From positions 1 to 59,684 of the forward strand of contig CAJBBV010000168.1 of assembly GCA_903951405.1 (NCBI GenBank): a stretch of DNA of 59,684 bases, given 5' to 3'. Shown here one piece after another: positions 48,185 through 59,684 of the stretch; the first letter of the stretch is position 1; each line of letters starts with the position of its first letter. The notes under the pieces were generated by a model. That model saw nothing but the letters and a program-made list of their open reading frames with translations, was not told the origin of the DNA and did no database searches. Source of the stretch: an uncultured bacterium (GTDB lineage: Bacteria > Bacteroidota > Bacteroidia > Chitinophagales > Chitinophagaceae). The position numbers and the translations under genes are program-made.

Positions 48185-48937
48185 ATGAAAAGAAAAGTAT
48201 TGATAACTGGCGCTAGCTCTGGTTTCGGAAAGTCTATTGCACAAAAATTTGCTGCTTCTGGGGACGATTTATTTATTACGGGGAGAAGAGTTGAATTGCT
48301 TAATGAACTCAAAGAGGAGCTAATTGCAAGCTATGGCGTATCAGTAACAGTGCTGGTTTTTGATGTTCAAAAAAGAGAAGATGTATTTTCTGCCTTATTC
48401 AACAATCCTGATTTAGTAGATTTAGATATTCTTGTTAATAATGCTGGACTCGCATTAGGACGTGATTTATTCGACGAGGCCAATATGGATGATTGGGAAA
48501 CGATGATTGATACGAATGTGAAAGGCTTGCTTTATGTTACAAAAGCAGTTCTACCTAATTTTATAAAAAGAGGGAAGGGCCATATAATCAACATTGGTTC
48601 TACTGCAGGAAAGGAAGTGTATGAGCGTGGTAATGTGTATTGCGCAACAAAAACCTCTGTCGAAGTATTAAGTCAAGCCATGCGAATTGATCTATTGCGA
48701 CATAAGATAAAAGTGACTGTCGTTCATCCTGGTGCAGCAGACACTGAATTCTCTATTGTGCGGTTTAAAGGAAATGAAGAAAAAGCTAAATCTGTTTACG
48801 ATGGCTATACTCCACTATATGCTGATGATGTAGCTGATACCGTTCACTATTGCGCTAACCTACCTGAACATGTATGCATTAATAGCTTAGTGATGACATG
48901 TACTTCACAAGCAAATTCGATGTATTTGTTTAAATAG
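48185..48937 (+). CDS. SDR oxidoreductase (YdfG-like)
   Basis: Motifs ITGASSGFG, LVNNAGLALG, YCATK, TEFSIVRFKG. Confidence 0.92.
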   Translation: MKRKVLITGASSGFGKSIAQKFAASGDDLFITGRRVELLNELKEELIASYGVSVTVLVFDVQKREDVFSALFNNPDLVDLDILVNNAGLALGRDLFDEANMDDWETMIDTNVKGLLYVTKAVLPNFIKRGKGHIINIGSTAGKEVYERGNVYCATKTSVEVLSQAMRIDLLRHKIKVTVVHPGAADTEFSIVRFKGNEEKAKSVYDGYTPLYADDVADTVHYCANLPEHVCINSLVMTCTSQANSMYLFK

Positions 48938-48965
48938 ATGTTAGTAGTTAGATGTTAGACGTTAG
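48938..48965 (+). repeat. Heptamer array NNGTTAG x4
   Basis: ATGTTAG TAGTTAG ATGTTAG ACGTTAG, starting immediately after the SDR TAG stop. Confidence 0.93.
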
Positions 48966-48979
48966 GCCTTTTGCTGTTT

Positions 48980-49021
48980 CTAACTCCTAACCCCTAACTC
49001 CTAACCCCTAACTCCTAACCC
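48980..49021 (+). repeat. Heptamer array (CTAACTC CTAACCC)x3
   Basis: A perfect 14-bp unit repeated three times, ending 1 nt from the sprA stop codon. Confidence 0.96.
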
Positions 49022-49022
49022 C

Positions 49023-52000
49023 TTACTGCGCTAAGGATATCCTAATCTGTACACCACCTCGTGTGTTAACTGATGGAGCAGCGTTTGAAATGTATGGGTT
49101 AATTCTGCGCTGATCAAAGTACAATTGAACGTTCACTCGATTGCTCAACACGTAATCAATCGTTGGACGAATGCTAAATATACGCTGACCACCTGTCGCA
49201 AAGGCATTGGATTGATCAAGTCTTGAATTTGAATTGATATCATCTCGTATGCTGAAATCGAGTGCGAAGGTCAAGTCGTTGTCTAATTTTTTACTCGCTT
49301 CTTTTTTGCCGAGCTTGAGTTTGAATGGCAAAGGCATTGCCCTTTTTCTCCAACGCATTCCAAAAGTGATTTCGGTTGAACGTACTTCACTAAGCTGAAG
49401 GTCGATAAGGCTCATGCTTAGTGTTCGTGATTTTCTGTATTCAAATCTACCAGATAATTGTCCGGGAGTTGTGAAATCAATTCCAATCAATGGTGCGAAT
49501 TGTTCTTGAATCGAGAGATTTGGAACAAGGAAATAGGGTATGTAGTTTCCTGATATGGTATCAATGAATGACGGGAATCCATACATTAATGTGTCTTGGA
49601 ATAACAACGCAGAGTTGAAGCTGTTCATACTCAAGGTGCTATTGTATCCATGGGTGATAGTGAAATTAGTAAAGTATTGCTGTAGGCTTTCAATTCTACT
49701 AAGTCCATTATAGGTGAGCCTCCAGTTTGGTTTTGGCAGATAGCCGCTAAATGGATTTGATTTTACCGTATTGGTTTGACCATTCTTTAATAAGGCAATT
49801 TGATTTGGGTCCTTGTTCGTATAGGCTGCAATAAATGCAGGAATCAATACATCTTGTGAATATCGTCCATACCCTGTGTAATAGCCATCGGCACCAACTG
49901 TTTTACTATATGGGTTTTGTTCTCCAAGTCGTTTAGATAAGATGCTTCTGTTTTTTTCAAATTGCTTGAACGTCTCACTCGTATTATTTGCATTGAATTT
50001 TTTAAACAATGTCTGGAATGAAACATAGCTGATGCTAAATCCTCCACCAGAGTATGGGCTTAACGAATTGAAATCACCAGTGCCCACGGTATCCTTAAAT
50101 AGTGTTGAGAAATTTTTTGAAAGACTTTTGTCGAGATTCAAGTCAATCATCAAATCTCGTATCGGTTCTATTTGTGCAGTCAGGTTTAGCTTCTTTTCAT
50201 ATGACTGTAAGAATAAATTATTAAGTAACGGGTCTTTTGTAACCAGTCCTTTTTTACCAATCTTATCAAGCCATTGTTGATTTGGTTGCTTACCCATGAT
50301 AAAGTCAACTCCAGGAGCCATGCTCTTCCAATTCTGACCAAAGAATTTGGTACTATCTGTATATCCAGGTAATAATGTGCTTCCCCCTTCATTGTATGTT
50401 GCGCCAACTCGCTTCACGGCAGTTAATATCTTGAGTATCGCTTTTTCAGTAGGGGATAAGATGATTTCTTTTCTTTCTTTTGGTTGTTTTTCTTTCAATG
50501 CTTTCTCTTGCGACTTTCTTTCTTTTTCAATACGATCTTGCTCTTCTTTTTCTTTTTTCTCCTTTCGCTTATCCTCAACAGTCTTTATTGTTTTCCCTTG
50601 AACAATGACCGTGTCTTTTTTTACTCTAAATGCTCCTGGTTTGCTTTTCTGCATACTTGGGTCAAATATGTCTGGTAATGAGTAAAGCCCAGCATTCTTT
50701 TTATTTTGATCAGGTGAAGTCACTTGTTCATTTATCTTTACTTCGTCTGCTTTTTTAGTTTCACTCACCTTAGGGTCTTTGTTCTCCCTTTTTTTATTTT
50801 TCGAATTTCCTTTTGGTGTTTTTTGATTATTTTTTTGAGCAGATGGCGTTTGAGGTCCATTATCAATTGCTCTTAACACCTTTGATTTGTTGTAAAGCTG
50901 AGCAAAATTCATCTCGAGCGTTCCACCAGTTTGGCCGCTGTTTTGTATGGTATTGCCAAGGCTTAATGCAAGCCTAGATGCGCCAATCCAATTGTAAGTA
51001 GTTCGGTAGGCTACATTCACCGTTGTCCAATCCAAAACCGGAATAGAATTAGTTGGTAGGTTATAAGTTAGGTCTGTACTTTGGTTATAAATGGTGTTCC
51101 GTCCACCCTTCAAGAAATTCTGTGTAAGGGAGTCGCGTTTAGGTCTTGTATTAATTCGTCCAAACGGTTCGTCTACACGTGAATTGTTCAATGCCTTGAA
51201 GTCTATATTTAATGATTTCGTTAGGTCCCAACGCAGATTGTAGTTCCTGTCGACCACAAAATATTTATCGTAGGTTTCAGGAATTTTGAATTTACCACCC
51301 CCGATATTCCGTGGAAGTATCGCAGCAAATTGTCTTCGTGTATCCACCCGAAATCCAATTAGTGATGGAAGTGGGTTGAAGTTTACGTTACGAATAAAAT
51401 CAAGCCAAGGTGTTTTGATTTTGATTAATTTTTTTAGTGGCTCAATGTATTTAGGTTGAGTATTGTAATTGTATCCTATCCCCCCCTGGGTTTTATTTAT
51501 CTGGTTACTTTCAATTAATGGGTTGTGTTGTCTAGTTTCAGTCAGCGAGTAATTGAAATCAAAATTGGAAATGCTCCACAATTGAATTTTTTTATTTTGT
51601 TTCTGTGTGAACCGAACATTCGTAAAGTTGATGGTTTTGAGCCCAACATAATCTACCGCTTCATTTCGTATGGAGTCTCTTGACGAATTGTATGTTCTTA
51701 GTTTTTGCTTTAAGGTGATGTCTTTATCGAATGGATCATACTTCGGACTGCTAATAATTTGTGATATGTTTGCAAAGAAGGGGATCTCAATACCAATCTC
51801 TTTAGGAAGAAGTTTTCCTAACTGAAGATTTATCGATGCATCAACTTGTTTGAGGTCGTCGCGATACCGATCATTAACGCGTTGCTCTAGTTGTCCAAAT
51901 CCAGCGGTGTGAATATTGGTCGACATAGAGATTGAACCTAAGTCGGATAGCTGAAGATTCATTTGACCAACAGCGGCCCATCCACCATTTTCATCTAACC

Positions 52001-57208: not shown

Positions 57209-57299
57209 CTATTATCTAGCACCTAACTACTAATGTCTAACTTCTAACTGCTAACTACTAACGGCTAACTACTAACGTCTAACTACTATATCCTAACTT
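57209..57299 (+). repeat. Degenerate heptamer array CTANNNN x13 (consensus CTAACNN)
   Basis: CTATTAT CTAGCAC CTAACTA CTAATGT CTAACTT CTAACTG CTAACTA CTAACGG CTAACTA CTAACGT CTAACTA CTATATC CTAACTT; no indels. Confidence 0.95.
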
Positions 57300-57312: not shown

Positions 57313-58311
57313 ATGACTATGGATCAGAAAATTACCGCAGCCATTACCGCAGTTGGTGGATATGTGCCAGAAGAGAGATTAACCAATGCCGACTTGGAAA
57401 AATTAGTGGACACAAACGATGAGTGGATTAAAACCAGAACTGGAATCACTGAGCGAAGGATATTAAGGGGAGAAGGTAAGGCTACGTCTGATCTTGTTGT
57501 TCCTGCTGTTAGGAATCTTTGCGAAAAAAGAGGCATCGATCCAAACGAAATTGATTGTCTAATTGTAGCCACGGTTACACCCGATATGATGTTTCCAAAT
57601 ACGGCTAACATTACCTGCGAAAAGTTGGGTATTAAAAATGCATGGGGGTTTGATCTGCTAGCGGCATGCTCAGGATTTTTATATGCCTTGACCACTGGAG
57701 CTGCTTTGATAGAAAGCGGTCGGTATAAAAAAGTGGTTGTGGTGGGTGCAGATAAGATGAGTGCCATCGTAGACTACACCGATAGAACTACTTGTATCAT
57801 TTTTGGTGATGGAGCCGGAGCTGTTTTATTAGAACCCAATACAGCTGGCTTTGGCGTAATGGATAGTCTATTGAAGTCTGATGGTAGCGGTGGAAAATAT
57901 TTATACATGAAAGGTGGTGGTTCATTGAATCCGGCAAGTGCTGAAACCATTGCAGCAAAACAACATTATATTTTTCAAGATGGACAACCCGTTTTCAAAT
58001 TTGCTGTTACCGGAATGGCAGATGTTGGGTTTGAATTGATGGAACGGAATCACTTAACAGCAGATGATATTGCGTGGCTTGTGCCACATCAAGCCAACAA
58101 ACGAATCATTGATGCAACTGCACGTCGCATGGGACTTCCAGACGAAAAAGTATTGATGAATATTGAGCGGTATGGGAATACCACGGCTGCAACAATACCA
58201 CTTTGTCTATGGGATTTTCAAGATAAAATTAAACCAGGCGATAACATTGTGCTTGCCGCTTTTGGTGGTGGGTTCACCTGGGGCGCTACATTGGTGAGGT
58301 GGGGTCAATAG
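57313..58311 (+). CDS. fabH: Beta-ketoacyl-ACP synthase III
   Basis: Motifs DEWIKTRTGI, AACSGF, FGDGAGA, VPHQAN, YGNT, FGGGFTWG. Confidence 0.96.
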   Translation: MTMDQKITAAITAVGGYVPEERLTNADLEKLVDTNDEWIKTRTGITERRILRGEGKATSDLVVPAVRNLCEKRGIDPNEIDCLIVATVTPDMMFPNTANITCEKLGIKNAWGFDLLAACSGFLYALTTGAALIESGRYKKVVVVGADKMSAIVDYTDRTTCIIFGDGAGAVLLEPNTAGFGVMDSLLKSDGSGGKYLYMKGGGSLNPASAETIAAKQHYIFQDGQPVFKFAVTGMADVGFELMERNHLTADDIAWLVPHQANKRIIDATARRMGLPDEKVLMNIERYGNTTAATIPLCLWDFQDKIKPGDNIVLAAFGGGFTWGATLVRWGQ

Positions 58312-58374
58312 ACGTTAGATGTTAGTAATTAGACGTTAGGAGATAGATGTTAGACGTTAGATGTGAGGAGTTAG
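58312..58374 (+). repeat. Heptamer array NNGTTAG x9
   Basis: ACGTTAG ATGTTAG TAATTAG ACGTTAG GAGATAG ATGTTAG ACGTTAG ATGTGAG GAGTTAG, directly after the fabH TAG. Confidence 0.95.
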
Positions 58375-58466
58375 TGGTTTAATTTAATATATTTTTTAAA
58401 TTATTGAAGTGATTGATTTGTGCCTTAATTATTGAACATAAAATTTGAATGTCATATAAACTTTTT

Positions 58467-58529
58467 CTAATGCCTAACATCTAATTACTAACGTCTAACG
58501 TCTAACGTCTAACTCCTCACGTCTATTAA
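58467..58529 (+). repeat. Heptamer array CTAACNN x9 (inverted relative to 58312-58374)
   Basis: CTAATGC CTAACAT CTAATTA CTAACGT CTAACGT CTAACGT CTAACTC CTCACGT CTATTAA. Confidence 0.95.
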
Positions 58530-58547
58530 ATTCGTAATTTCACCACC

Positions 58548-59684
58548 ATGTCATCCAAACAAAAAAAATACAAAGGGTTCTCGTCGCTCGCCATTCATGC
58601 TGGTCAACATCCTGATCCGATGTATGCGCATCTAACTCCTATTTATGCGTCATCTACATACGTGTATGATAATGCAGAGCAGGGCATGAAGCGCTTTTCC
58701 GGAGAAGAGCCTGGATATATTTATTCACGTTGGGGTAATCCTACGATGAATGAAGCGGAAGAAAAGATTGCTGCGATGGAATGTTTTGAGATTGAAAGAA
58801 ATGGAGTGGCTTTGCAAGCCAAAGCAATTTTGCATGCATCTGGAATGGGTGCTATCAGCTCGTTATTTCTAGCTACACTTAAGAAAGGAGATAAAATTCT
58901 TACGCATTATTCATTGTATAGCGGTACACAAGATTTAATGAAAACATTGTTGGAGCCGCTTGAAGTAGAAGCCGTCATTGTTGACTTGCGAGATCTTTCT
59001 ATTGCAGAAAAATTTCTCAAGGAAGATGCTGCTATTAAAATGATATACCTTGAAACGCCTGCCAATCCTACGCTTCAGTGTGTTGACTTAGCCGCGTTGA
59101 GTGCATTGGCAAAGCAGTATGGTAAATTAACGGCATGCGACAATACCTTTTCAACACCGTATTTTCAACAGCCGTTTAAATTTGGAATTGATTTCATTGT
59201 GCATTCTACCACGAAGTTTTTGAATGGACATGGTACCGCTATTGGTGGTGTATTGTTGGGGACAGATATCGAATTCATGAAAACACGTGCAACAAAAACA
59301 CATCGTTTGTTGGGTGGAAATAGCAATGCCTTTGATGCATTTTTATTGATCAACGGAATGAAGACCTTAGAAGTGCGCATGCAGCGTCATGGTGATAATG
59401 CGATGAAGGTGGCTGATTTTTTAATTCAACATCCGGCTGTGGCTACTGTAAATTATAATGGGTTATCTACTCATCCTGATTTCGCTGTTTCTTCAAAGCA
59501 AATGCGACATCCTGGTGCAATGATGAGCTTTGAACTGAAGGGTGGCTATGATGCTGGAGTGCAATTCATGAACAAACTTCAGTTGTGTACACGCACTGTC
59601 TCGTTGGGAACATGTGATACATTATTATCACATCCCGCATCGATGTCTCATTCCAGTGTGCCCCGTGAAAGCAGATTAGAATAC
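58548..59684 (+). CDS. Trans-sulfuration PLP enzyme (methionine gamma-lyase / cystathionine gamma-synthase family), 3'-truncated by the window edge
   Basis: Not in the ORF track. Manual translation gives MSSKQKKYKGFSSLAIHAGQ...YIYSRWGNPT...SGMGAI...YLETPANPT...DNTFSTP...VHSTTKFLNGHG...SLGTCDTLLSHPASMSH. Confidence 0.92.
   Translation, partial: MSSKQKKYKGFSSLAIHAGQHPDPMYAHLTPIYASSTYVYDNAEQGMKRFSGEEPGYIYSRWGNPTMNEAEEKIAAMECFEIERNGVALQAKAILHASGMGAISSLFLATLKKGDKILTHYSLYSGTQDLMKTLLEPLEVEAVIVDLRDLSIAEKFLKEDAAIKMIYLETPANPTLQCVDLAALSALAKQYGKLTACDNTFSTPYFQQPFKFGIDFIVHSTTKFLNGHGTAIGGVLLGTDIEFMKTRATKTHRLLGGNSNAFDAFLLINGMKTLEVRMQRHGDNAMKVADFLIQHPAVATVNYNGLSTHPDFAVSSKQMRHPGAMMSFELKGGYDAGVQFMNKLQLCTRTVSLGTCDTLLSHPASMSHSSVPRESRLEY

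Follow-up and report, generated by a model that had tools for sequence, protein, structure and literature searches.

A gene-less pair of inverted heptamer arrays between fabH and a methionine gamma-lyase-like gene in an uncultured member of the Chitinophagaceae

The analyses of the window, the 59,684-nucleotide stretch that forms contig C168 of the genome G000, identified two inverted heptamer arrays that lie between fabH and a lyase gene and enclose an AT-rich spacer of 92 bp. With a probability of about 0.6, we interpret this element as a gene-less inverted heptamer pair around a non-coding spacer, likely derived from a single insertion in the ancestor of a small clade, whose repeat stock is that of the arms of a cassette in the same genome that carries a four-helix-bundle gene (family TIGR02436/PF05635). 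The element is an ordinary gene-less member of a family of inverted arrays, one of dozens in G000.

The element starts directly behind fabH (beta-ketoacyl-ACP synthase III; 57313–58311, plus strand; NCBIfam TIGR00747, 375.5 bits against a cut-off of 292.1), and a degenerate unit that includes the fabH stop codon, TCAATAG, directly precedes the left arm. That arm (58312–58374, plus strand) consists of nine G/T-rich heptamers, most of which end in TTAG: ACGTTAG, ATGTTAG, TAATTAG, ACGTTAG, GAGATAG, ATGTTAG, ACGTTAG, ATGTGAG and GAGTTAG. The right arm (58467–58529) is inverted and, when read on the minus strand from 58529, has the degenerate unit TTAATAG followed by ACGTGAG, GAGTTAG, three copies of ACGTTAG, TAATTAG, ATGTTAG and GCATTAG. 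The initial annotation had counted nine heptamers in each of two inverted arms; the inversion and the nine left units stand, and the right arm is more accurately eight good units (58467–58522) with one degenerate outer unit. Our unit reading confirmed its remark that TAATTAG and the A(C/T)GTGAG-GAGTTAG pair are common to both arms in a different order. The longest exact inverted match between the arms is 13 nt, and TRF scores of 57–76 (best rows for each arm) place the arrays far beyond chance.

The spacer (58375–58466, 17.4% GC) had no conserved reading frame and no Rfam match, and its fold, taken by itself, was at the level of chance (z -0.02 to 0.76). Two minus-strand frames had been annotated there and both exist. 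The mini-ORF MTFKFYVQ (58455–58429, stop included) has its ATG 11 nt from the right arm and within the spacer, not inside the arm as was first described; it is not conserved, the ATG being ATA in G085 and the frame reading MTFKVYVQ in G092. The second frame is longer than had been given, with 33 codons from 58480 to 58379 that read MLGIRKSLYDIQILCSIIKAQINHFNNLKNILN and end in ILCSIIKAQINHFNNLKNILN before the stop. Across the end of the right arm lies TAAATTCG (58527–58534, plus strand), a candidate -7 promoter box 13 nt before the start of the lyase gene. This gene (58548–59684, plus strand) encodes a Cys/Met-metabolism PLP enzyme that is methionine gamma-lyase-like and runs off the window; its best NCBIfam models, PRK06234 and TIGR01328, both scored under their cut-offs.

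A period-7 scan of G000 listed 88 array-bearing regions. Among neighbouring arrays with no ORF of at least 80 codons between them, here termed gene-less pairs, 34 pairs had the G-rich array first and none had the reverse order, 25 were of the same type and six included a mixed array. The fabH-lyase element has the G-rich array first and the C-rich array second, inverted, which is the polarity of the four-helix cassettes. The statement in the initial annotation that four-helix-bundle genes often sit among heptamer repeats was borne out, as all three intact TIGR02436 genes in G000 adjoin heptamer arrays, and 59 of the 96 four-helix loci in the genus had a G-rich array upstream together with a C-rich array downstream (five had no detected array). 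The cassettes that shared the most 10-mers with the junction arms were those of the C159 locus, which took ranks 1–4 of the 96.

To place the element among relatives, we compared the same junction in near relatives drawn from GTDB; among the matches listed by a metagenome scan, the relatives were 75–80% identical. A fabH gene was detected at E 1e-150 or better in 69 of the 82 genomes of the genus; 40 genus fabH loci were compared, and the fabH tree has three additional order-level rows for rooting. The close loci, those of G085, G092 and G089, were 96–98% identical, and all three of these nearest genomes carry an array at the fabH junction, the contig of G089 ending 12 nt after fabH and that of G092 before the lyase start. 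The spacer is likewise 92 bp in G085 and G092, with different arms. In the 40 genus loci, 18 junctions were short and had no arrays, 16 had arrays and six had other DNA. Because deep branching in the fabH tree is weakly supported, placing the insertion in the present clade rests on these many empty junctions. In two public runs (X7 and X9, from eight runs examined as contigs) the left arm of the allele is longer and the spacer has two G092-like changes, again with no gene; the one RNA run examined, X19, had no coverage of the element.

The arrays at this junction are of four repeat stocks: the TTAG heptamer of the present clade, a GTGGAA-type 7/8-mer (G088), a GTTGAAG 9-mer (G080, G072, a clade of eight) and an AGCAGTA-type heptamer (G012). 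These occur at five places on the fabH tree, and junctions with both arms have the G-rich arm first, usually from the fabH stop codon onwards. For 10 genomes with junction arrays a cassette was available, and in eight of them the cassette unit matched (own rank 1–7 of 96), an agreement that is descriptive only because kin are not independent; no matching arm was found in G014 and G017 among the cassettes compared. In G088 (L047) the lyase gene itself contains the right-hand array, which follows codon 6 in frame (MSDKKKHSTFHTPLPTFYKGF). In more distant relatives (L063, L070 and L072) the fabH-lyase interval contains a 195-residue ORF and another gene, which from their motifs we take to be a REP-associated tyrosine transposase and a DinB-like gene, respectively.

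Comparison of the sister genomes showed that divergence of the spacer is that of ordinary intergenic DNA, and that the arms change by gain, loss and reordering of units. The left arm has 9 units in G000, 11 in G085 and 15 in G092, and the right arm 8, 7 and about 23, with the unit order also differing. Relative to G000, the spacer has 8 of 92 positions changed in G085 and 13 of 92 in G092, all point changes, which compares with ordinary intergenic divergence as 8.7% versus 7.7% (p 0.69) and 14.1% versus 11.5% (p 0.41). Because the spacer is less diverged than 4-fold sites (p 0.001), a special constraint on it was considered, and was rejected since intergenic DNA of the ordinary kind is just as conserved.

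The spacers of other elements in these genomes were for the most part similarly conserved, with identities of 0.83–1.00 in 13 of 16 comparisons. At C116 (G000:C116:2917–3028 versus L193, G085:C166) the 94-bp spacer is inverted in G085, with 79 of 94 positions matching on the reverse strand; an assembly flip is less likely there because the arms share only 18–21 exact bases. This spacer contains a perfect terminator-like hairpin and has heptamer arms around it, and it lies between convergent genes. At C64, C4, C26 and C69 the spacers or arm types differ between sister genomes. The C64 site (G000:C64:15968–16002) has two unrelated spacer alleles, one in G000 and G089 and the other in G085 and G092, a split that conflicts with the fabH tree, in which G000 pairs with G085. 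Different four-helix alleles occupy the same sites at C43 (G000:C43:6041–6364 versus L137 of G085), C102 (versus L136 of G092) and C159 (versus L135, L138 and L140), and at C43 the arm unit differs between the sisters as well, so that whole cassettes appear to have been replaced between sister genomes. From the spacer inversion and the replacement of spacers and cargo we infer recombination through the arms; no recombinase or polymerase linked to the arrays was found in the analysis. At two loci (L135, G089:C33; L138, G092:C41) a second copy of the 3' end of the four-helix gene, trailer included, stands behind the first of the downstream arrays.

The initial annotation had proposed that the spacer holds an internally deleted cargo gene. 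In its most plausible form, the spacer would be what is left of a decayed four-helix-bundle gene on the minus strand, probably the last helix only, after a deletion inside a cassette. We consider this unlikely, and on the sequence comparisons made here a gene relic is not demonstrated. In favour of a relic, the arms match those of intact cassettes in their shared 10-mers, and the same minus-strand frame scored best in all C-terminal profile tests. By eye, the corresponding G092 frame, KSLNDIQSLCSIIQTQINKF, lines up with the end of that genome's own C159 gene, KSLEDLFLSIDKIIHTILKKW, and the motif ILxSIIK is common to the G000 frame and the C102 gene (DNA p 0.016, protein p 0.10, uncorrected). 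When nine clade cassettes were compared, six had nominal p values of 0.016–0.05, uncorrected, in one of two tests. The duplicated gene ends between arrays in G089 and G092 show that 3' ends of four-helix genes do come to lie in such positions, and a 176-bp deletion in the gene of the Coxiella intervening sequence, described in passages of PMC4990558, offers a parallel. The best point for the relic reading of the initial annotation is the start of the mini-ORF, as M-x-F-K-F occurred in 0.3% of 5000 spacer shuffles; M-x-F-x-F occurred in 5%.

Against these points, family-wide comparisons of the spacer with the ends of four-helix genes stayed at the level of chance. HMM scores gave p values of 0.14–0.45 for the spacer, the best pairwise comparisons with 232 proteins p 0.17–0.9, and DNA alignment with 173 genes p 0.43–0.64. 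For the 3' end as a whole the family-wide p values were 0.09–0.9, and the best single subfamily or target reached 0.016–0.05, uncorrected. The likeness of the 33-codon frame to a last helix is faint and non-significant: the last-helix profile gave p 0.09–0.54 family-wide and 0.047 for the best single subfamily, with a score of 6.8 for the spacer; true gene ends had a median score of 16.1, and 59 of 60 passed, although these controls were inside the profile and their scores are hence inflated. At the 5' end, an M-x-FKF start of a split gene found no support (split-gene model p 0.49–0.75; ATG absent in G085). The start that had been given as a sign of such cargo, M-x-FKFE, belongs with other arrays, since the 10 genes with F-x-F-E starts (L374, L375, L377–L380, L384, L388, L393 and L139) carry 8–10-mer arms, not the present heptamer, and most other four-helix genes have 7-mers; the arm period tracks the four-helix protein subfamily. 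The cassette genes of the C159 locus start with MGTVKSYEDL or MAKILTYNQL, and the protein matches of the spacer to C159 genes are in another frame and mid-protein.

The frames themselves also speak against a relic. The 33-codon frame is broken by two stops in G085, the differences between G000 and G092 change amino acids, and its final stop is found in G000 only. An open frame of 28 codons occurred in 39–44% of 5000 spacer shuffles, and an M followed by seven codons in 82%. A search of 1.84 billion proteins with the 33-residue frame gave two matches, both to unrelated repeat proteins, and Pfam gave none. Furthermore, when DNA up to 2.5 kb downstream of fabH was scanned with an HMM built from 292 family proteins, a four-helix gene was found in none of 130 loci, 73 of which included the lyase gene, and neither fabH nor the lyase gene was contained in any of 106 four-helix loci. 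Both checks that the initial annotation had set for refuting its relic, a gene between such arms in relatives and spacer similarity to four-helix gene ends, thus went against the relic. Searches with the spacer DNA found no second copy in G000 (blastn and tblastx, short AT-rich matches only) and 54 short, weak matches in 400 family genomes, the best of 35 nt; 29 of these were inspected and were to unrelated genes or intergenic DNA. A match that resembled a nucleotidyltransferase fragment, and another with what we take to be a sigma54-like motif, were rejected as chance. As the spacer is single-copy in G000 with only weak matches elsewhere, it is not the conserved multi-copy internal sequence that defines a MITE or REP element.

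The spacer could also be host DNA, namely an older lyase leader and codons 1–6 of the gene, which growth of the right array behind codon 6 would have severed, so that a duplicated start is now in use. This is suggested by a 13-mer at 58449–58461 (plus strand), a possible abandoned gene start that agrees in 11 positions with bases 1–13 of the lyase gene, as did 1 of 5000 shuffles; it reads MSYKLF, and MSYKLF and MSFKLF fit the N-terminal pattern MSxKxF of lyases in relatives (L009 and L014). The array that stands within the G088 lyase after codon 6 also speaks for this origin. We nevertheless regard this origin as improbable, because the match was noticed after the fact, the two lyase leaders fail to align by eye, G085 lacks the spacer ATG, and a duplicated gene end in the spacer was seen in one case only among 46 pairs of element and gene. 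A selected regulatory device, whether an invertible switch or a protein-binding array that controls the lyase, seems very improbable to us. The inversion between arms at C116 would suit a switch; passages on Geobacter in PMC2700814 propose that paired opposite tandem arrays are regulator sites, and passages of PMC4679880 that heptamer arrays are translational control sites. At the fabH junction, however, one orientation was present in all three genomes and in the covering contigs of X2, X7 and X9, bearing in mind that contigs drop rare variants. The spacer has no conservation in excess of ordinary intergenic DNA, its palindromes are at the level of chance (p 0.08–0.9), and relatives have four unrelated repeat units at the same junction or, in many cases, no arrays.

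Returning to the reading of the element as a gene-less inverted pair that was inserted once in the clade, we propose that slippage, together with recombination among the approximately 90 array-bearing regions, would drive its turnover. In a transcript that reads through from fabH, the arms would pair into an imperfect stem of approximately 50 bp right behind the stop codon. Folding of the RNA, which the initial annotation had suggested as a check of arm pairing, supported such a stem, with -68.2 kcal/mol and a z-score of -6.65 (0 of 200 shuffles) for the element and z-scores of -5.3 to -10.3 over three genomes and both strands, values that are inflated for any inverted tandem-array pair. The terminal stem, a feature of 23S rRNA intervening sequences, is thus a predicted one here. 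By analogy with rRNA intervening sequences, the stem is likely an RNase III substrate; processing is suggested by the Coxiella intervening sequence, in which RNase III cleaves a heptamer-containing stem according to passages of PMC4990558. Such processing would uncouple the lyase gene, which may be served by the promoter-like -7 box that follows the right arm. A separate promoter is suggested since TAAATTCG is one mismatch from TAnnTTTG, the Bacteroidota -7 consensus in passages of PMC9723704. This box is unchanged in G085, and in 10 of 32 cases the stretch from the array to the start codon contained a TAnnTT(T/C)G box. A scan found one sigma-70-like site, the number expected by chance, and a terminator scan of the element found no terminator, including any with a U tail. 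Overall, the element is probably close to neutral.

A broader idea, which we hold tentatively, is that gene-less arm pairs are non-autonomous, emptied four-helix cassettes. Each lineage would seed its own unit at gene boundaries, the arms would act as recombination handles through which contents are swapped, flipped or deleted, and the fabH-lyase junction would have been hit repeatedly. If this is correct, it would connect the four-helix-bundle family with bacterial heptamer arrays, which are so far unexplained. If, moreover, a four-helix protein or a partner makes or spreads the arrays, that would explain the long heptamer repeats of Bacteroidota and other phyla and would give TIGR02436 a function. 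By itself the element is of small importance; it is useful for comparison, as one junction that has been refilled with different units.

The element has likenesses to several described systems. The ORF-bearing 23S rRNA intervening sequence of Coxiella burnetii (S23p/PF05635), as described in passages of PMC4990558, also has terminal inverted repeats that form a stem and a variable number of heptamers; its cargo protein is of the same family as that of the intact cassettes related to our element, and its ORF is deleted in one strain. By contrast, the present element lies between two protein genes rather than in rRNA, has no ORF, has full tandem arrays as both of its arms, and has a stem that is a putative RNase III substrate. 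The paired hepta- and octanucleotide arrays of Geobacter metallireducens are likewise multi-copy 7–8-mer arrays, paired on opposite strands at a variable distance; they differ in their units and in being read as regulator binding sites, and the passages of PMC2700814 contain no link to four-helix proteins. The heptamer arrays of Beggiatoaceae, Cyanobacteria and Bacteroidetes (TAACTGA), in the passages of PMC4679880, are intergenic, forward before start codons and reverse after stops, and, as with the present element, close relatives lack them at the corresponding junction; they differ in that the paper regards them for the most part as one unit in direct repetition, and its main text nowhere uses the term "four helix". 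A literature search, mostly outside subscription papers, found no description of such arms with four-helix genes beyond rRNA. Most similar are the TIGR02436 four-helix cassettes of the genus (96 loci), which share with the element their polarity, their position hard against gene ends and, for the C159 cassette, the repeat stock; unlike them, the element lacks a cargo gene, and a remnant of one could not be demonstrated.

Several other arrays were observed. The window contains a further inverted pair with a spacer of approximately 14 bp between convergent genes (48935–49027), a single C-rich array before fabH that reaches the fabH -7 box (57223–57298), and a CCCAACT array at the contig end (1–34). 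Elsewhere in G000, a pure GGGGTTA run of approximately 14 units lies upstream of a four-helix gene (G000:C43:5820–5932), and the sequence of this run is telomere-like.
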